A stretch of 64,000 bases of DNA from Promethearchaeota archaeon. Lineage in GTDB: Archaea > Asgardarchaeota > Lokiarchaeia > Sigyniarchaeales > SOKP01. Positions 51,778 through 61,619 of this stretch are shown here, piece by piece. The notes beneath the pieces are model-generated. The model did no database searches. It was not told where the DNA came from and worked only from the letters and a program-made list of their open reading frames with translations. Position 1 is the stretch's first letter. Each line of letters opens with the position of its first letter. The stretch spans positions 148,192 to 212,191 of the forward strand of contig JAHLWP010000003.1 in assembly GCA_019057865.1 (NCBI GenBank). The letters run 5' to 3'. The position numbers and the translations under genes were made by a program.

Positions 51778-52350
51778 TCAAGGGCATAAATCATATTTGT
51801 TATTTAAATTCTTTAATTCTTCCTTTGGTATGGGATTAAAATAAAGATGAATTTTAACACCACGAACAGGTTCAAGACCTTTGGTACTGGTAATTTGATT
51901 TCTGCTAAGAGTCAATTCTTCTAAACCTTCAAGGGGTTCGAGACCTTTTATTTCACTTATCTTATTTTCACTTAAGATTAAATAATAAATCTTACTAAGC
52001 CCCTCAAGTCCTTTTATCTCTTTAATTTGATTATTTCCTAAATCCAAGAATCTCAAATCTTTTAGGTTTTGAAGTCCTTTTATTTCAGTTATATTATTAT
52101 GGTCTAAATATAGATTCCATAAATTAGTTAAATTGTCAAGATCTTTAATTTCTGTAATTAAATTTGAACTAAGGGATAATCTTTTTAAATTAGTGAGAGC
52201 TCCTAATCCTCCAATCTCAGATATCTTATTTTTTGTTAAATCCAATGTCTTTAAATTTTTTAAATTTTGAAGCCCGTTAATCTGAGTAATCTTATTAAAA
52301 CTTAAATCTAAGAATTCTAAATTAATTATTTTTTCAAGACCTTCTATCTG
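51778..52350 (-). pseudogene. SDS22-type leucine-rich-repeat protein, 5'-truncated
   Basis: The LRR frame extends upstream of TTG 52245 (QIEGLEKIINLEFLDLSFNKITQINGLQNLKNLKTLDL) and begins mid-repeat at about 52350. Confidence 0.75.
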
Positions 52351-52888
52351 GTCCTTCTCTTAAATAATTTCTTGCTTTATATGTCCAAGTATAGCAATCA
52401 GTAACAAACTTATTGTATGATTTAGGTTTCATTCTATTGTCTGATGCATCATTGGTATGGAAATACATTTTAGTCTTAACTAGCATCCCATGACAGGGGA
52501 TATTATTTAATGTTAAATAGGTATAAGATTTGGCTTCAGGATTGTCAGTAGTATCAGGAGCCTCTGTTCCAATATAGAAGATCACTTTTCTTTTTTCTGT
52601 CCAAAAAATTGTGTCATCATCCTTCCACTTGGCACTAGCGATCTGATCTGCTAAAATTGCATCCAAAGCTGCTTCAGCTATCCAGTCGTGAGTACCATAG
52701 CAATATCTATACCAATCCTGAATCTCTGATTCTGTCGCAAAATTTGGATTAAACGTTGCTCTCCTTTCAGGGAAATGACCTTGAATCCTGCCGTTATTGA
52801 AACCTTGAATATCTAGCGCTAAAGGTACTAAAGCTATTAATATTTCAAAGATAATCAAAATTAATAAAAACTTTTTTCTATTCTTCAC
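52334..52888 (-). pseudogene. Secreted zinc-dependent phospholipase C/P1-nuclease-like protein, 3'-truncated
   Basis: Signal peptide, GTHDWIAEAA and GTEAPD. It ends before the expected later His/Asp ligands, running into LRR sequence. Confidence 0.55.
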
Positions 52889-52933: not shown

Positions 52934-53640
52934 TTATATAAATACCCCCCAACCTTGAGTTCTATGATACCATATAAGTAAGCCTACTATTGATAGCACC
53001 ATTGTACCAACTGAATACATTAAAAGGCACGTCGAAGTTGTTAATGAGCTAGGATCATTACCACGGCCTTTAAAGAAAGACATCATAATTCCCCCTATTG
53101 TTGCCATGACAAACATCTCAATCACTTCTAAAGGTAAGTAAAGTATGTCGTACAAAATCGTGAAATCAAACCCTCCAAAGTTAAACGGAAGCATACTTAG
53201 AAAACCCTGAGCTATAGCGATATAACCTAAATAACGGAACCATAAAGAGAGCTTATCAAGGACCTGTAATACTTGTGAACCACTTTTATCTAAAAAATTG
53301 CCTACTGAAGTAAAGGCAGCACAAACCGAGGCAAATGATAAAGCTACTGATAAACCAAGTATACCGCCAAAATTACCAGATTTCTCATATTCAATAAGCA
53401 TCCATATTGCCATTCCAAGACCAGTTAAAGTCGAAATTAAAGAAATAGCCGAAGAAGCTAAAGAACTATAAGGATTGCTCCCTCTTGACACAATTAACGA
53501 AGTTAAAAACCCACCTAAAGGAAGAATTCCACCTAAGTTTGCTCCAAGGCTAAAGGCATTATACATTGAAAGAAGGCTACCTATATTCCATAACCTTTTA
53601 TTTGAATGCAATGTTGGTAGCGGATTACCCTCACTATCCT
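52934..53640 (-). pseudogene. Gly/Ser-rich multi-helix hydrophobic domain, probably the C-terminal part of a larger gene
   Basis: About 6-7 hydrophobic helices. The frame stays open upstream of TTG 53611 to 53710 with no RBS, colliding with the PIN gene. Confidence 0.5.
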
Positions 53641-54805
53641 TAGTCTCAAATCTGAACTTCCAAATGAAGATAATATCTTCATAGTTGTTGCTTATACTGT
53701 AAATAAAGAATTAGATGAATTGAAACAACGCAAAAAAAGAATTAGAAATTTACAAGGAAAATTGAAAAAATATAAAGATAAAGAATTTTCTACGGGGATT
53801 TTTTTAAAAATAATTATTTATCCAACAAAATGGTCATCATTAGAATCGGATTGGGTAGAAAAACTAGATAAAAATGATGCTGATTGTCGTATTATAGCAG
53901 AAATACTTGTCTTTAGTAAAATTCATCCAGAGGACGATATTTATTTCATAACCGCTGATAATACACCCTATTTTTTAGCAAAAGATTTGGGTATAAATAC
54001 AATTTATTGGACAGATGAAGAATTTAAAGAGATTTTTGAACGTGATGAGTCAAATATAAAAAAACCTAAGATATTAACTGATTTAATTATACATTTTGAA
54101 AATGGTGAAAAAGAAACTAGCATAACTTCTAAAATAGACTTTCCTAGTCTTGAGACCTTTATGGACCAAGAATTTCCTGAGATTTCAGAATTTAAGAATC
54201 AAGAAGAATATGCACTTAATAATGAAGATTTAACTTTAAATCAAATAGAAAAAGAGGGTTTGGAAATAACTAATATTCTAAATTCTTTTTTTTTTAAGGA
54301 TTACGAACAGTTTAGAACAGAAGTTGAAAATTATTATAATGATCTTAAGGAGTATAAAAAGTATAAGGAAATTAAATTTTGTTTATCAAATACAGGAAAT
54401 AAACCTTACAATAACGTAACTATTCAAATATTTACTCCTTTAGAAAAGGGTTTTGATATTAAGTCTAAAAATGAGATTGAAAAACCAGAGAGACCAAAAT
54501 TTGAACGTCGATTTCAATTTCAATTATCACCTACCCTTATGTCCCGTTCAATTCATTATCTTAGAGAATATAACATTAAATATATTGTACCTAAAAAGTC
54601 GGAAGAAAGGGAGAGAAATGATTTATGGGATTTTGGATATACTATAAAAAAAATTCAACATAATATAACATTAAATCTCTATTCTATTATGATTAAATTT
54701 CCAGATGATTTTAAGACGAAAAAAATATATTTTTCTTGTGGGTTTGTTCACGATGAGGAAGGTAAAACGAAAAACCAAAAGTTAAAGTTAAATATAGAAA
54801 TTTAG
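53621..54805 (+). pseudogene. PIN-domain ribonuclease-like protein, 5'-truncated, with a C-terminal beta-rich domain
   Basis: Upstream of TTG 53720 the frame reads IFIVVAYTVNKELDELK; DADCRII and FITADN follow. The first acidic DTN motif is missing (TAG at 53618-53620). Confidence 0.65.
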
Positions 54806-54834: not shown

Positions 54835-56907
54835 TTATCTCATTCTTCTTCTTGTTCTGTTTCTCAAATCCCTCAATAAATAATCCATCTTATCTATATC
54901 AAAAAAATATTCACCAAATTTAATTATATATTTATCGCTTTCAATTTCCTCATCTAATTCCCTTACTTTCCTAATAACTATCACTTCCCCTACATTATCT
55001 CTATTATTTTTTCTAAAAATTTCCTCAATTCTAGGAATATCTTTTAAAGAATACAACTCTGATCCCCCATATTCACCCACACTACAAAATATAATCTTAA
55101 GGGTTCTATAATGGGTATACTGGATTATGTTTAATAATTTAGAATAAAAAGGTAAAATTTTGTTAGTGAGGGAAGGAATTACAATATAATCAATCTTATT
55201 TTTTGAAGCCCAGCCTGAAATAACATCACTTAGACGCAAAAAATCACGACATATGAAAATCGATATGTTTCCGATAGATGTTGCGAAAATCTTGATCTTT
55301 GGAAAAATTTTGCATTCAATTTTTTCTTGGATATCTAATGAAGATATATAGACAGGTGTTTGCTTTTCCTGATAATCAATCAAACCTTTATCAATGATAA
55401 ATGCTTGGTTAGTATAATAATTATTATTAGTATTTTTCTTGTGCTCTAAGCCACCTATAATGACTACTTCATGTTCTCTTGAAATTTTTTTAAGGTATGA
55501 GATTTTACTATAAGGAACAGAGTTCTCAGGAAGAACAATCAAATCAGGTTTACCATTATGGTCATCTATAGCCATTGAAAGCATTTCATCAATTTTTGGA
55601 TTTACTCTTGACTCTAAGTTTTGATATATCAACACTTTATCAGTATTTTCCCAGAAATGTTTAATAAAAAACAAAAAATGCTCACTTTTATTAAAATTCA
55701 AATCATCGAATTTTTTAACTCCTTTTAATGAATGAATTTGAAATATATGGATGATTTTTAACGGAAAATCATCAACTTCTCTTGACAGTGTTATTTTTTC
55801 TGGTACCTCTTCAAAAAATAATAAATTTTGCATTGATTTTTGCTTGAAATGTTCCCTGTGGGTTCCAATTGCCAGAATATCTGATTCACTTAAATTACTT
55901 AATTCCATCTTGAAGATTCTAATGTTTTCTTCATAATCAAGTTTTAAATTATAATACTCCATAAATCCAGCACTACCTTGTCTTTTCATGGCAGAATATT
56001 GAACAATTCTCTGAGCATATTTGCTTTGGAGTGCTATATATTTATCATATTTCTGTAGATCAGTTTCATATAACGAAATTTTCCTCAAATTTGTTAAATC
56101 TTCTAAGTTTTTAATTTCTTTAATCGGATTATAATCAAAATATAAATGAAGTAAATCTTTTAAATTCTCTAAATTTTGTATTTCTTCTATAAAATTCTGT
56201 TCTAAGTGTAAAGATCTAAGATTAATTAACTTTTCTACTCCACTTATCTCCTTAATTCTATTTTTTGAAAGATTAAGCCATTCCAAATTTATTAAGGTTT
56301 CTAAATTTTCAATCTTCTTAATATTATTAGATGAGAAATCTAAATCTGTTAAATGAACTAAAGATTCTATATTTTCAATTCGTCCTATATTATTCTCTCC
56401 CAACCAGAGTTTATTTAAGGAAGTTAATTCTTCAATGTTTTCAATTATTTTTATTTTGTTGTTAAAAAGCATTAACTCTTGTAGATTTCTAAGGTTTTCT
56501 ATTTCCTCTATTCGTTCAATCTCATTATGTGCTAGGTATAACCACTCTAAATTAACTAAGTGTGAGATATTTTTTATCTGTGATATTTTATTTCCTGAGA
56601 TTGCAAGTTCTTTTAAATTAACCAAACGGTCAAGATTTTTAATTTCTGTAATATTATTATAAGAGAGAACTAAATCTTCTAAATTAATTAAATTTTCTAA
56701 GCTTTTTATTTCAGTTAAATTATTTTTCCATAAAGAGAGAGTCTTTAAATTATAAAGTCTTTCTAAACCAATGATCTCATCTAAGTCTGTTATCCCTCTT
56801 CCTTGAAGGTAAAGGCAATTGTTATCTACAAATATTTTCTCATCATTATATGTTACGAAATTTGTCATCAAACATTTAAGTGATTTTTGACATAATTTTA
56901 AATCCAA
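54835..56907 (-). CDS. SDS22-type LRR array fused to a C-terminal nitrilase/carbon-nitrogen hydrolase domain
   Basis: About 11 LxxLxLxxNxIxxIxxLxxL repeats; PDLIVLPE(E), QEK(K)QTP and IFIC(C)RDF catalytic triad motifs. Confidence 0.85.
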   Translation of the reverse strand: MDLKLCQKSLKCLMTNFVTYNDEKIFVDNNCLYLQGRGITDLDEIIGLERLYNLKTLSLWKNNLTEIKSLENLINLEDLVLSYNNITEIKNLDRLVNLKELAISGNKISQIKNISHLVNLEWLYLAHNEIERIEEIENLRNLQELMLFNNKIKIIENIEELTSLNKLWLGENNIGRIENIESLVHLTDLDFSSNNIKKIENLETLINLEWLNLSKNRIKEISGVEKLINLRSLHLEQNFIEEIQNLENLKDLLHLYFDYNPIKEIKNLEDLTNLRKISLYETDLQKYDKYIALQSKYAQRIVQYSAMKRQGSAGFMEYYNLKLDYEENIRIFKMELSNLSESDILAIGTHREHFKQKSMQNLLFFEEVPEKITLSREVDDFPLKIIHIFQIHSLKGVKKFDDLNFNKSEHFLFFIKHFWENTDKVLIYQNLESRVNPKIDEMLSMAIDDHNGKPDLIVLPENSVPYSKISYLKKISREHEVVIIGGLEHKKNTNNNYYTNQAFIIDKGLIDYQEKQTPVYISSLDIQEKIECKIFPKIKIFATSIGNISIFICRDFLRLSDVISGWASKNKIDYIVIPSLTNKILPFYSKLLNIIQYTHYRTLKIIFCSVGEYGGSELYSLKDIPRIEEIFRKNNRDNVGEVIVIRKVRELDEEIESDKYIIKFGEYFFDIDKMDYLLRDLRNRTRRRMR

Positions 56908-57167: not shown

Positions 57168-60100
57168 TTAAAAAAAATCCATTAATCTAAATAAGCGTTT
57201 AAGATAGGTGAAATAGACATCCCAGAAATTCTCAAAATTTGTCTTATTAATTTTTGATAAAAACGTATACATAATAAAATCATGTGGAATATAATGTAGA
57301 ATTTTTTTCCTTCTTATAACAAATTGGTTATATAATACTTCCCAACCATAATCAAAACTTTCGCTTTTATCAAGAGTATAAAGTTTTTCAATAGATACGA
57401 ATGGAAACTCATCTTTTGGAGATTTTAATAGAGCTTTTTTGATCTTTATTTCCAAATCCTTAATTATTAGCTTCTCAAATCCCATCTTTTGTTTTTTATT
57501 GATAAAAAATTCAAAAAAAGAAAAAATAAAATCTGTATTGCTTATTTCTGTTACACTCTTATCTTTTCCTTGGTTAATAAAATATTCAAATAATTCTTCC
57601 CAATTTGCAAAAGTAACGTTGTCCAATTCATCTAACTCAGCTAAAATTTTAGGCATATCAACAGAATATTCCCTTTGCTCTGAAAGTTCTTTTTGGTCTA
57701 TTTCTTCAAAAAATGAATTGATTTTTTCAATAAATTTGGGTGGAGTTTTAAGCAATTTTGAGATCTCAGTAAAAAAAGTCTTTGGTACTTTAAGTTCTTC
57801 CCTTAGTTTATGGGAAATAATTTCTCTAGGAATGTATCTATTAATTCCAAGAGTATAATATACACTTTTAGCCAAATTTTGGTCCCATGTCAAAAGAATT
57901 TCATAAAAGCGTTTTTTTACATCAAAGATCCCAGCATGTTCCGCAATTTCTTCTGCAATGTTAAGCATATCACAAACCCTATGAAATATTTTATTGAAAT
58001 TCGAATCTTCTTTAGGAAAGTAGTGAATCATATTTTTGACCATATAAATCAAATTTTCAAGCTGGTAATCTTTTCTTGGATACAACCGGAAACCAAAAAT
58101 TTTCAATTTATCAATAAAGTAATTACGGTTTTCTTCATAAAAACTAGTGTGATCATTTTTTAATATTTCCAATACTTCCAAGATTTCATAAATCGTTGAG
58201 GAAAGATTCCAATAGCCTATTTCCTGAATAGAATAGTTTTCTTTTGCATTTTTAATTACCCATTTGACAAGATCATGATTAATCTCCTTAAAACACTTAT
58301 AAATCCTCCCAATTATTCTAATTTGACTTCTAATATCGTTAAACATGTAATTACTTTGCTTAAAATATTCAAATATTGATATTTGGAACCATTTATAAAG
58401 AAATGTATAAGGTTTAATTTCCTCTATTAAGAAAGATAAGAATCCTGAAAAATCAAAAAAAATTCTTCTCCCACTTTCGTCAATGAAATTCGAACGGTTT
58501 GCATAAAATTCAAACAAAATGGTAATCGAATCTGAGAGTGGTCTTGCTTGTATTAAATCTTTATATTCTTTATCCAATTGAATTGCTAGGTCAAAGAATG
58601 CATACTCCCACTGCATTTTTTTCGCCTTTCTTGTTAAATTTTCATGTACACGATGCATTCCTTTACATAAAACCCAAACCTTTTCTTTATCATATCCAAA
58701 TTTATCATAAAGATTTCGATAGAGAAAAGCCCTGTTTTTAATCCCTTTGTAGTGACCAGAATAGGAATATTCTAACGTGAATCCCACACCCATAAGCTTA
58801 ATAATATCATCTTCAGATAGATTATTGCTGAAATATATCCTGAAAATCTCACTGAGTGTCGAATTATTAAATATTATCTTATAAGTATTATTTTTATTCA
58901 AGAAATTCTCAAAATATTCTTTCCCTCTTATTTTACTTTCTTCATATTTCAGTTTTAAAATAATAATAACCGGATTTTCAAGTTTTATAGAATGGCGTAG
59001 TTCATCTCGATATTTATTTTTGAAAGTCAATTTTTCTGTATCTTTTAATTCCCACTTATCCCGCTCAATTAATTCATTTAATATTTCATATATTATTTCT
59101 AATGATTCTAACATTGAATTTTCTATTAGAAATTCTCCTATCATTAATAAAATTGGATAATAACGCCATCTTTCTCCTTCTAAGAGGTAAGATTTATGTT
59201 TTCCTAAAAGAAATTTTTTATAGTCAGTAATAATTTTGTTGGAATCTTTTTCAAAAATTAAAGCCACTTGTAACCATTTTTTTGTAAATTTTTTATCATA
59301 GTCTGGGTTGTGAGATACCTCAATCCAATTATGACGATTATCTTTAAAATAATCATTAATTAACAAAAAAATGTTGTTTTCTTCCTTTAAAAAGCCCTGA
59401 TCCATCATATAGAGAATATAATCAAGTTTAAATAAAGGAGAGACTTCAACAGAGTTTAAAATATTGGCACAGAGGTATAAAATATGATATTCTGAATTTT
59501 TAAAGACAAGATTTATTAAAAATATGTAATTAGGGTTTGTATCCAACTCATTTATTGCTTGTCTGAGTTCAAATTCTAACTTTAGAAGAATAATCTTGAA
59601 TGTAGTTTCAATTTCATTGTTTTCCATATAATATTCAAGTAAGTTTCCGATATCTTCAATGATATCAGCAAGATTTCTACCTTGTAGCCAGTGAGACAAA
59701 AAATAATTAACGTTAATATCAAAATCCTTGATTCTTTCTGCTTTTTTTAAATAAATTATCTTATTCCAATGTGCATATGAATCTATATTATTTTCATTAC
59801 ACCTGCTTGCTAAATCATTATAAATTTCCTTTTCTTTATCCTTTATCGAGATTCCTCCAAATTTGACGGATTTCTTCTGCAAAAATTGTTTAAAGGAATT
59901 ATGATCAAATAAGATGATATTAGAATATTGTTTAAAAAAGAATTTGAATTTTAAAATAAAGATGTCAACCTGGGTATTTTCTAACCAACTTTGTAACCAC
60001 ATCAAGTCGATAGGTCCATGGATTCTTGAAATTAAACCAGCGATTTTGTTATAATTAGAATCATCTTCAAAACCAAAGGACACCCAATATTTTTCATATA

Positions 60101-61619
60101 TATTATCCCAACCGTTAAAATCCAAATTTTCATTAATCATATGCTTATTATTTCTTAGATCGTCATAACTTTCAAAATTTTCACAGATATGCTTTAAATA
60201 TCGTGGATTTCCTTGAGTTTTGTTTAATAACACCTCTATAATTTCAAATTCTAACGGTGTCTCATTTTTAAAATACTTCATTAGGTATAGTTCGATTTCC
60301 TTTTCTGTGAAGGTGGGTATATGAAATATATTTAATTCCTTGAAATATTCTGACTGTTTATACCAGGGAATTGAATCAAAATGTTGACCGCTTACAAGAA
60401 AGATTATACGGTTAGGTAAAGTGGAAGGTTTTGGCAAATAACTAGTTAAAGGCTTAGCTAACTTTTCCATTTCTTCTTGGGTTACATGATCAATTCCATC
60501 TATTATTATTAGAACCTTTTTTTCTTTTTCCTCAGCCATTTCAGAAAGTTTATATAAATTTTCGATAAATCTCTCATTCACATCTTTAAAAGAAGTACTT
60601 CTAATATAATACCTAAATTGTTCATTTAGATCTTCATAAAAATGGTCTATTTCTCCTCTAGATCTATGACTCAATTCATTAGGATCTCGAAAACAGAGAT
60701 ATTTAAAAATATAACAATTCCTGAAAGTCTTGGTGTTTATTTCAGATTCTAAAAATGTAGATTTTCCTGTACTTGGACCTCCCTGCAAAAACAAATACCC
60801 TTTACTTCTTTTTAAAACTTCTTTAATTAGATTATCTTTCAGGCTCGGAAAAGATATATATTTTTCCTTTTCGACTGGAAAATCGTGAGGATTAGGAGAG
60901 ACACTTAATCCAAATTCTTTTAATAATAATTCTAAAGGAAAGTAACCTTTTTTCTCGGGATTCTTTTTTGTTATTAAAAACCAAGTATAAAAAGATTCAA
61001 TCTTTTTAATTTCTTCTATCGGTCTTGCTCTAGTAGGCATATACCCGAAATTAAAATTAAAGTGATCTAAAAAATTCCACAGTTCATCATTAGAAATACC
61101 AAGATGTTTTGAAAATCTATCAAGAAATTGTTGATTGATATTATCCTCAAGTATTATTTCTTTAGTAATCTTATTGTTTTTGTAAGGTATCCATATTTCA
61201 CGATAAAAAGAAGAGAAAGAAATTTTTTTATTTCTCTCCTTTGGTAAACCGCTTGTACTACTACTGGGATATTTATTAGTAACTAATTCTAATTTTAACT
61301 GATATTCTTTAAAATTCTTTCTCAATATTTTGTATGAGCTATATAACTTTTGAAATAAGGAAAATTCCTTCCCTGTTTTTATCGTGAAAAGAGCTCCTAA
61401 AGTAATTTCATCCCTAGTTTTTGAAGCTTTCGTCTGAATACAATGTAAGATATTATTGTTTAATTCAAAAACAATGTCATCCCAATTCCCAAATTTTTCA
61501 TGTTTTAGGTAAACACCTGTGAGGATGCCTTTCTCTAGATATTTATCAATATAATCACCAAAGACAGTTGCCTCAAAATCATCCCCAATTGCTTGGGAAT
61601 CATCTCCTCTTGAGCTCAA
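57168..61619 (-). CDS. PD-(D/E)xK nuclease-STAND/NACHT ATPase with long helical sensor region (Avs/AVAST-like antiviral protein)
   Basis: GDDFE...WDDIV...IQTK nuclease motif; GGPSTGKST; LIIIDGIDH; GNPRYL; ~900-aa helical C-terminus. Confidence 0.8.
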   Translation of the reverse strand: MSSRGDDSQAIGDDFEATVFGDYIDKYLEKGILTGVYLKHEKFGNWDDIVFELNNNILHCIQTKASKTRDEITLGALFTIKTGKEFSLFQKLYSSYKILRKNFKEYQLKLELVTNKYPSSSTSGLPKERNKKISFSSFYREIWIPYKNNKITKEIILEDNINQQFLDRFSKHLGISNDELWNFLDHFNFNFGYMPTRARPIEEIKKIESFYTWFLITKKNPEKKGYFPLELLLKEFGLSVSPNPHDFPVEKEKYISFPSLKDNLIKEVLKRSKGYLFLQGGPSTGKSTFLESEINTKTFRNCYIFKYLCFRDPNELSHRSRGEIDHFYEDLNEQFRYYIRSTSFKDVNERFIENLYKLSEMAEEKEKKVLIIIDGIDHVTQEEMEKLAKPLTSYLPKPSTLPNRIIFLVSGQHFDSIPWYKQSEYFKELNIFHIPTFTEKEIELYLMKYFKNETPLEFEIIEVLLNKTQGNPRYLKHICENFESYDDLRNNKHMINENLDFNGWDNIYEKYWVSFGFEDDSNYNKIAGLISRIHGPIDLMWLQSWLENTQVDIFILKFKFFFKQYSNIILFDHNSFKQFLQKKSVKFGGISIKDKEKEIYNDLASRCNENNIDSYAHWNKIIYLKKAERIKDFDINVNYFLSHWLQGRNLADIIEDIGNLLEYYMENNEIETTFKIILLKLEFELRQAINELDTNPNYIFLINLVFKNSEYHILYLCANILNSVEVSPLFKLDYILYMMDQGFLKEENNIFLLINDYFKDNRHNWIEVSHNPDYDKKFTKKWLQVALIFEKDSNKIITDYKKFLLGKHKSYLLEGERWRYYPILLMIGEFLIENSMLESLEIIYEILNELIERDKWELKDTEKLTFKNKYRDELRHSIKLENPVIIILKLKYEESKIRGKEYFENFLNKNNTYKIIFNNSTLSEIFRIYFSNNLSEDDIIKLMGVGFTLEYSYSGHYKGIKNRAFLYRNLYDKFGYDKEKVWVLCKGMHRVHENLTRKAKKMQWEYAFFDLAIQLDKEYKDLIQARPLSDSITILFEFYANRSNFIDESGRRIFFDFSGFLSFLIEEIKPYTFLYKWFQISIFEYFKQSNYMFNDIRSQIRIIGRIYKCFKEINHDLVKWVIKNAKENYSIQEIGYWNLSSTIYEILEVLEILKNDHTSFYEENRNYFIDKLKIFGFRLYPRKDYQLENLIYMVKNMIHYFPKEDSNFNKIFHRVCDMLNIAEEIAEHAGIFDVKKRFYEILLTWDQNLAKSVYYTLGINRYIPREIISHKLREELKVPKTFFTEISKLLKTPPKFIEKINSFFEEIDQKELSEQREYSVDMPKILAELDELDNVTFANWEELFEYFINQGKDKSVTEISNTDFIFSFFEFFINKKQKMGFEKLIIKDLEIKIKKALLKSPKDEFPFVSIEKLYTLDKSESFDYGWEVLYNQFVIRRKKILHYIPHDFIMYTFLSKINKTNFENFWDVYFTYLKRLFRLMDFF

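Follow-up and report, generated by a model that had tools for sequence, protein, structure and literature searches.

Recent work has shown that nitrilase domains are the part that kills or arrests the cell in two anti-phage systems of the defence-associated reverse transcriptase (DRT) kind, DRT1 and DRT11, and in both the nitrilase cysteine (exchanged in C1116A of DRT1 and C876A of DRT11) is required for phage defence of the abortive-infection type (PMC13275509, PMC13436386). The DRT1 nitrilase is active as an oligomer and is closed by a C-terminal lid; its substrate is unknown, with ATP, GTP and NAD+ having been suggested (PMC13275509, PMC13436386). The class 3 UG/Abi hydrolases have been placed in a clade of their own, separate from other nitrilases (PMC9226505), and a census of defence systems in Asgard archaea mentions neither nitrilases nor DRT systems (PMC11291487). 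Here we analyse a gene in a stretch of 64,000 nucleotides from a Promethearchaeota archaeon (assembly GCA_019057865.1, contig JAHLWP010000003.1, positions 148,192 to 212,191; hereafter the window), whose product joins a leucine-rich repeat (LRR) solenoid to a C-terminal nitrilase-superfamily domain. We searched the literature on nitrilases together with LRR, Asgard archaea, effectors, STAND or other nucleoside triphosphatases (NTPases), CARF and conflict systems, and found no description of an LRR-nitrilase.

With slightly better than even confidence, we read the LRR-nitrilase as a cytoplasmic single-chain sensor-effector of the prokaryotic conflict (antiviral) type, which would work without an NTPase or an obligatory partner gene. 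Its nitrilase domain belongs to the same radiation as, and has the Glu-Lys-Glu-Cys tetrad in common with, the nitrilases of DRT1 (UG1, 9YFD) and UG5-large/DRT11 and the stand-alone ones paired with UG5-small/UG6, and, as in DRT1 and DRT11, it would form the effector end of a multidomain protein. However, no reverse transcriptase (RT) domain is present in the protein or encoded nearby, the only RVT_1 match of the genome being on another contig (C11; the window lies on C54), so that it is a relative of the effector domain only and not a DRT system. The partner module is instead an LRR solenoid, so the regulation of DRT1 by a DNA adduct and filament cannot apply, and the host is an archaeon.

The ORF (open reading frame) at 54835–56907 on the minus strand is open for 690 codons counted from a TTG at 56907, and all residue numbers below refer to this 690-residue frame (protein P0001, from TTG 56907). 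The start of the gene is most likely the in-frame ATG at 56868, giving a product of 677 residues, because a 94%-identical homologue (P0003) begins with MTNFV. The features of the gene are as follows, where pLDDT is the predicted local distance difference test score of AlphaFold2 (AF2) models.

54835..56868, minus strand: LRR-nitrilase gene, whole; 677 residues from ATG 56868, stop at 54835–54837 (the mechanical ORF reaches TTG 56907)
56749..56868, minus strand: N-terminal LRR cap, 40 residues with three short beta strands (E4–7, E10–13 and E18–20 of the full-length AF2 model, pLDDT 87–95)
56023..56748, minus strand: eleven SDS22-type LRRs of 22 residues each, residues 54–295; presumed ligand-binding sensor (Pfam, repeat spacing, PDB profile, AF2 model)
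55774..56022, minus strand: helical linker, or N-terminal extension of the nitrilase domain, residues 296–378; five helices, pLDDT mostly 88–97 (half-length model)
54934..55773, minus strand: nitrilase-superfamily (CN-hydrolase) alpha-beta-beta-alpha domain, residues 379–658; presumed effector (Pfam, PADLOC, AF2, structure alignment)
55525..55527, minus strand: catalytic Glu461 of the PE motif, 94/95 in the family
55363..55365, minus strand: catalytic Lys515 of QxKQTP, 95/95 in the family
55324..55326, minus strand: Glu528, second Glu of the tetrad, 95/95 in the family
55249..55251, minus strand: nucleophile Cys553 of FICRDF, 94/95 in the family
54838..54933, minus strand: short basic C-terminal helical tail of 32 residues, low confidence (full-length AF2 model)

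The tail differs across the family, being absent in some members, about 100–130 residues long in others and an HNH nuclease in some orthologues. The GC content around the gene shows no island signature.

A reading made from the letters of the window alone (the sequence-only reading) had described an SDS22-like LRR solenoid followed by a helical linker and a CN-hydrolase domain with the motifs VLPENSVP, NQAFII, QEKQTP and FICRDF, and each of these parts was recovered. Residues 54–295 form 11 repeats at an exact spacing of 22 residues with the SDS22-class pattern LxxLxLxxNxIxxIxxLxxLxx, and Pfam places LRR_4 (E 1e-37), LRR_8, LRR_9 and LRR_14 across residues of about 40–290. When the family profile was compared with the Protein Data Bank (PDB), the best solved LRR matches were Chlorobium Roco, internalin A, SHOC2 and PPP1R7/SDS22 (E 1e-45 for PPP1R7). 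SDS22/PPP1R7, the Roco LRRs and the internalins thus have the same class of 22-residue repeat; they carry no nitrilase domain, and their roles in phosphatase regulation, GTPase signalling and adhesion do not point directly to a ligand for the window protein. The linker is conserved in the family, with near-invariant, family-specific G-T-x-x-E, Q and F positions, and it is helical in the AF2 model. The four motifs lie at Glu461, at residue 500, at Lys515 and at Cys553, respectively.

The AF2 models have high confidence scores. For residues 290–690, modelled with 51 homologues, pLDDT was 87.7 and the predicted template-modelling score (pTM) was 0.85; the full-length model (pLDDT 89.2, pTM 0.78) contains the cap, the eleven LRR strands, the five linker helices and the C-terminal domain. 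In the sequence there is neither a Walker A motif nor a match to an NTPase family in Pfam, NCBIfam or PADLOC. The protein also has no transmembrane segment or signal-like hydrophobic stretch, and we read it as cytoplasmic because no part is hydrophobic enough for a membrane helix.

Across the family the number of LRR motifs per protein varies from about 3 to 18, and orthologues are closest to the window protein in the nitrilase domain, with a median identity of 51%, compared with 38% for the LRRs and 30% for the linker. The identity of the nitrilase domain and the retention of its tetrad therefore indicate that the enzyme is under purifying selection and that the repeat module is variable.

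The fold of the C-terminal domain is certain in the model: it is the four-layer alpha-beta-beta-alpha sandwich of the nitrilase superfamily, with no solved branch clearly closest. Aligned with solved structures of the superfamily (Foldseek, VIA-align), residues 379–658 gave Z values of 19–20.6 and a root-mean-square deviation of 2.6–3.2 Å over 210–230 residues, with 5g3o, 2vhi, 2w1v and 1f89 among the top matches. These matches comprise formamidase, aliphatic amidase, Nit2/Nit3, beta-ureidopropionase, carbamoylases, vanin and Lnt, all within approximately 1–2 Z units of each other and at 10–17% identity. At the level of sequence, a single-sequence phmmer search of the domain against the PDB returned nothing at E <= 10, and the domain-only profile (alignment A3) gave weak matches to several nitrilase branches, including Nit3 (1.6e-7) and DRT1 (9yfd, 5e-4).

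Glu461, Lys515 and Glu528 are invariant and Cys553 is nearly so in alignments A1, A3 and A5. Among 95 LRR-nitrilase homologues aligned with hmmalign, the four residues are retained in 94, 95, 95 and 94 proteins, respectively, and all four are present in 19/19 proteins of the sister clade described below. From this conserved Glu-Lys-Glu-Cys tetrad, the domain is predicted to be a catalytically complete thiol C-N hydrolase.

The profile matches distinguish between types of nitrilase. Pfam CN_hydrolase (PF00795) matches residues 449–555 only, partially and marginally (23.8 bits against a gathering cut-off of 23.2, E 3e-5), whereas the PADLOC profile RTasNitrilase, a defence-nitrilase model, reaches 64.3 bits (E 2.5e-18); RT_UG5-nitrilase (3.5e-5) and Drt1a (1.7e-4) also match, and the PADLOC CARF-nitrilase profile has no match to the window protein at E <= 1. 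An above-threshold Pfam match and a structure that resembles formamidase, aliphatic amidase, Nit2 and beta-ureidopropionase equally well would suit an ordinary metabolic nitrilase or amidase with an incidental LRR, or a catalytically irrelevant scaffold. We consider this very improbable. The near-perfect conservation of the tetrad speaks against a dead scaffold, no curated metabolic NCBIfam model is matched by the protein except for a weak match to Lnt, and the family profile detects neither of the two stand-alone CN-hydrolases of the same genome at E < 1e-5. The phylogeny bears on the same point.

An exhaustive HMMER search of 1.84 billion representative proteins returned 138 matches, all of which belong to the LRR-nitrilase family or to multidomain relatives, with 39 representatives (at the 50% identity level) at E < 1e-30. 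The next relatives (E 1e-25 to 1e-13) are proteins of 800–1335 residues in which the domain is again C-terminal; all nine that were scanned carry an ABC-type ATPase domain (AAA_15/AAA_21), two of them also have N-terminal LRRs, and one of these two has DUF4365 in addition. Sixty-four remoter matches are joined in the Pfam tallies to nSTAND3, PUA, HEAT/Arm, TPR and aldolase_II, among others, and PADLOC assigns RTasNitrilase to 63 of them, RT_UG5-nitrilase to 59, CARF-nitrilase to 51 and Drt1a to 29. These 64 include a full-length CARF-nitrilase (P0173, PADLOC E 5.5e-202) and a bona fide RT-associated nitrilase (P0161, E 5.8e-61).

We built the phylogeny against defence and metabolic clades that the sequence-only reading had proposed, using two trees, both rooted on ordinary Asgard CN-hydrolases. 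The first was made with FastTree from 118 rows, including 14 of the outgroup, one of which, probably a mis-picked ORF, came out on the wrong side. For the second, IQ-TREE (LG+C20 PMSF) was run on 74 rows, including 10 of the outgroup. The metabolic Asgard CN-hydrolases are split from all other rows at 100 in FastTree and 99 in IQ-TREE (SH-like approximate likelihood ratio test, SH-aLRT), which adds to the case against a metabolic enzyme, and P0161 and P0173 fall on the side of the window protein. On these trees its nitrilase domain groups with the defence-type nitrilases, both RT-associated and CARF-linked, and the clustering with ordinary metabolic amidases that would have refuted the sequence-only reading is not seen. 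The LRR-nitrilases are monophyletic (96 in FastTree, 91 in IQ-TREE) and sister to the ABC-ATPase-nitrilases (99 and 96), and in the IQ-TREE phylogeny a HEAT-nitrilase group without the cysteine joins this pair at 98.

In this HEAT/ARM-nitrilase clade (P0132, P0183, P0166, P0137 and P0170, as well as L018 and L035), the cysteine is replaced by Gly or Ser and the Glu and Lys are retained; it is probably a pseudo-enzyme branch.

The sequence-only reading had also supposed a set of LRR proteins with exchangeable effectors, and the relatives bear this out: the nitrilase clade is joined to LRR, TPR, HEAT, ABC-ATPase, STAND and CARF modules, and LRR genes near the relatives carry other C-terminal domains. 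In addition, two orthologue clusters (P0005 and P0024, 810 residues) have a clear HNH nuclease motif, CxxC...HxxH...N...CxxC, in their last 50 residues and would thus carry two effectors on one LRR sensor.

Several described architectures can be set beside this one. In CARF-nitrilase (PADLOC CARF_m7--CARF_nitrilase, a predicted type III CRISPR ancillary effector), a sensor is likewise fused directly to a nitrilase of the same radiation without an NTPase; that sensor is, however, a CARF domain binding cyclic oligoadenylate, whereas in the window protein it is an LRR. The Asgard AAA_15/AAA_21 (Septu PtuA / OLD-like) nitrilases are the sister clade, occur in the same archaeal class, and some share the LRR (with DUF4365), but they carry a central ATPase in an NLR-like tripartite layout, and the window protein has none. 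The LRR is the classic sensor of NLRs, and NLR, Avs and bNACHT receptors of the STAND type combine a repeat sensor and an enzymatic effector on one polypeptide, as does the LRR-nitrilase on the proposed reading. It lacks the STAND NTPase, however, and is not a member of that group; in addition, its sensor comes first and its effector is C-terminal.

The fusion of LRR and nitrilase recurs widely, on about 45 independent contigs. A word-indexed search found 89 clusters (90% identity) at E 1e-42 or better, nearly all with both the LRR and the nitrilase domain, from NCBI, ENA, JGI and Logan assemblies; some of the contigs are long (139 kb, 342 kb and 1.48 Mb). Seven GTDB genomes and about 40 marine-sediment metagenome contigs carry the gene, and the named records are Promethearchaeota metagenome-assembled genomes (MAGs) and one Helarchaeota MAG. 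The fusion reported in the sequence-only reading is therefore genuine. That an LRR gene and a nitrilase gene were joined in an assembly chimera, a doubt raised in the same place, is contradicted by the presence of the same architecture in all these independent assemblies; nothing was found in its favour, and we give it practically no weight.

Within the Asgard archaea the distribution is very patchy. In a census of genomes with P0002 as the query (E < 1e-40), orthologues were found in 7 of 400, namely in 7 of 161 genomes of its own class (2 of 54 in the genus of the window) and in 0 of 239 genomes of other Asgard classes. The ABC-ATPase-nitrilases are restricted to the same archaeal class, and no relative was found among IMG/VR viral contigs.

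The genomic context varies between loci. At the six orthologue loci from GTDB genomes, no neighbour is common with the window. Selected genes at five of the six were annotated with Pfam: one locus (L036) has a type I HsdM methylase and a DDE transposase, a second (L040) has an MmeI/Eco57I-type methylase, a third (L039) has an HSDR_N-NACHT protein in convergent orientation, together with an LRR protein whose C-terminal domain is a different one, and a fourth (L041) has a TPR protein carrying the C-terminal domain of that LRR protein. When the ORFs of 45 loci were clustered, which is how the neighbours at the 39 metagenome loci were compared, LRR proteins (at 13 loci) were the only neighbour family recurring in at least three loci, and the LRR-nitrilase gene has no conserved partner; at L093, L094, L096 and L114 the LRR neighbour is the LRR half of a split LRR-nitrilase.

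Immediately upstream in the window, at 57168–61619 on the minus strand, lies a gene for a protein of 1483 residues. Its residues 35–196 are PD-(D/E)xK-like (PADLOC "Effector endonuclease", SAVED_PDDEXK), residues 261–453 match NACHT/NPHP3_N and include the Walker A motif GGPSTGKS at 280, and the C-terminal part of about 1000 residues is without a match; a comparison with PDB sequences gave no match for the protein. From its domains it looks like a single-protein candidate of the Avs/NLR type. The two genes are adjacent and on the same strand with about 300 bp between them, the neighbour brings an N-terminal nuclease match and a NACHT domain with Walker A, and a NACHT protein also adjoins the LRR-nitrilase at one orthologous locus (L039/L076), all of which would be expected if the nuclease-NACHT ATPase and the LRR-nitrilase made up one split NLR, with the LRR protein as sensor and second effector. 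We regard such a system as improbable. A homologue of the window NACHT protein was found at 0 of the 44 other LRR-nitrilase loci by blastp, phmmer and jackhmmer, and the NACHT neighbour at L039/L076 is unrelated at the sensitivity of these searches and in convergent orientation. In addition, the NACHT protein has a C-terminal region of about 1000 residues of its own, so that its sensor part is not missing, and the 300-bp AT-rich gap leaves room for a separate promoter.

Returning to the LRR-nitrilase as a self-contained receptor, we infer an immune role, ligand gating and an amide or nitrile substrate along the following lines. The sequence-only reading had suggested a ligand-gated amidase or deamidase, with a nucleotide, an NAD-related compound or a protein as its possible substrate. 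The LRR solenoid would serve as the binding module and engage a foreign or stress-derived ligand. Binding would switch the nitrilase to another state, the most plausible routes being relief of autoinhibition and dimerisation or oligomerisation, alone or together, with the conserved helical linker as the transducer. The nitrilase-superfamily enzymes require dimerisation or oligomerisation for activity. The activated enzyme would then attack an essential metabolite or macromolecule by hydrolysing one of its amide or nitrile bonds, and so arrest the infected cell. The protein would act alone, with neither an NTPase switch nor an obligatory partner gene. A more specific version, which we offer only tentatively, is that of an intracellular, NTPase-independent pattern-recognition receptor. 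In it, direct recognition of a protein of viral or other foreign origin by the LRR would be enough to switch on the nitrilase, which would then destroy an essential amide-bearing metabolite.

Some points weigh against the sensor-effector reading. To our knowledge, characterised immune receptors rarely combine a sensor and an effector without an NTPase or oligomerisation switch. Lokiarchaeia have LRR proteins in large numbers (17 LRR matches in this genome), and these may act in signalling unrelated to immunity. The relation to DRT1 itself is weak, as 9yfd is no closer than Nit3 or vanin and the Drt1a match is at the E value given above. The defence context is anecdotal, coming from the five annotated loci and the window, and the outgroup of the trees covers the ordinary Asgard CN-hydrolases only, out of a superfamily of thirteen branches.

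The main competing explanation is that the protein is an amidase of ordinary cell regulation with no part in immunity, in which the LRR recruits a cellular protein and the nitrilase deamidates it or cleaves a C-N bond in it. LRRs are protein-protein interaction modules, the closest solved ones belong to signalling or adaptor proteins (Roco, SHOC2, SDS22), and many LRR proteins are present in Lokiarchaeia. The superfamily includes protein-modifying members, the N-terminal amidase Nta1 being in it. Furthermore, the substrate is unknown even for the defence nitrilases (PMC13275509). On the other side stand the very patchy distribution (2/54 in the genus, 7/400 in the phylum), the variable context with restriction-modification, transposase and STAND genes, the HNH nuclease fused in some orthologues, the sister clade fused to Septu/OLD-type ATPases, and the position of the domain among RT- and CARF-associated nitrilases. 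As this distribution and these associations are typical of accessory conflict genes and not of core regulators, we consider a regulatory protein amidase doubtful and retain the conflict-type sensor-effector as our preferred reading.

If this preferred reading holds, the LRR-nitrilase would join an effector branch and a sensor type, each of them known, in an archaeal arrangement that is free of an NTPase and undescribed. The same nitrilase branch is wired to many sensor modules, among them, in Asgard archaea, an LRR solenoid without an NTPase. Should the more specific pattern-recognition version be true, nitrilase-effector chemistry would extend beyond the reverse-transcriptase systems to LRR, ABC-ATPase, STAND, TPR/HEAT and CARF sensors. 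With its 677 residues and two modules, the LRR-nitrilase is a much simpler protein in which the chemistry and activation of nitrilase effectors could be studied. LRR receptors dominate innate immunity in eukaryotes, and a candidate LRR-based immune receptor is here added to the archaeal lineage closest to them; if the pattern-recognition version is true, these closest prokaryotic relatives would have an LRR immune receptor made of a single chain.

Some further observations concern individual loci of the family. At two metagenome loci from different samples (L093:3276–5246 and L094:1499–3469), an in-frame TAG at the invariant Gln of IHLIQLHSLKG breaks the LRR-nitrilase frame, and the gene also terminates in TAG. 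The internal TAG may be a population-fixed nonsense allele or, less likely, the result of stop-codon recoding. At another locus (L083:580–10841), a cluster of LRR genes is present, in which two LRR-nitrilase genes encoding 837 and 569 residues flank a protein of 1703 residues. This protein has a Walker A motif (residue 450) as well as LRRs around 834–900 and is possibly a P-loop-LRR protein (Roco/NLR-like). It should be noted that a candidate for transfer to bacteria was rejected: a 52%-identical nitrilase fragment at the end of a contig from a Desulfatiglandaceae MAG (L078:1–321, JAWOBE010000139.1) most likely belongs to a chimeric contig end, as the first 300 nt have 27% GC and the rest about 45–57%.

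Two other regions of the window lie close to the gene. A 361-residue ORF at 53720–54805 on the plus strand is convergent with the LRR-nitrilase; it has no Pfam or PADLOC match, and its ESM Atlas features point to PIN_4 clusters (score 0.90), which is a lead only. At 51778–52888 on the minus strand there is an LRR-only ORF of 155 residues with about six 22-residue repeats, whose LRR similarity extends past a TAA stop into the upstream sequence. A 184-residue ORF in a different frame precedes it, and farther upstream lies a hydrophobic ORF of 225 residues at 52934–53611. Judged from this arrangement, the region may be an LRR gene that was truncated or has decayed.

The same genome also encodes other proteins with nitrilases of this kind. 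Three of about 1280 residues have a C-terminal defence-type nitrilase (L005:5829–9662, L006:5815–9645 and L006:9784–13629, all on the minus strand), the two at L006 being in tandem, and two of the three show sub-threshold TPR matches. A protein of 874 residues carries the same nitrilase type (G000 contig C54, 84213–84842, L048), and a family of related proteins of about 880 residues is found in many genomes of the genus.

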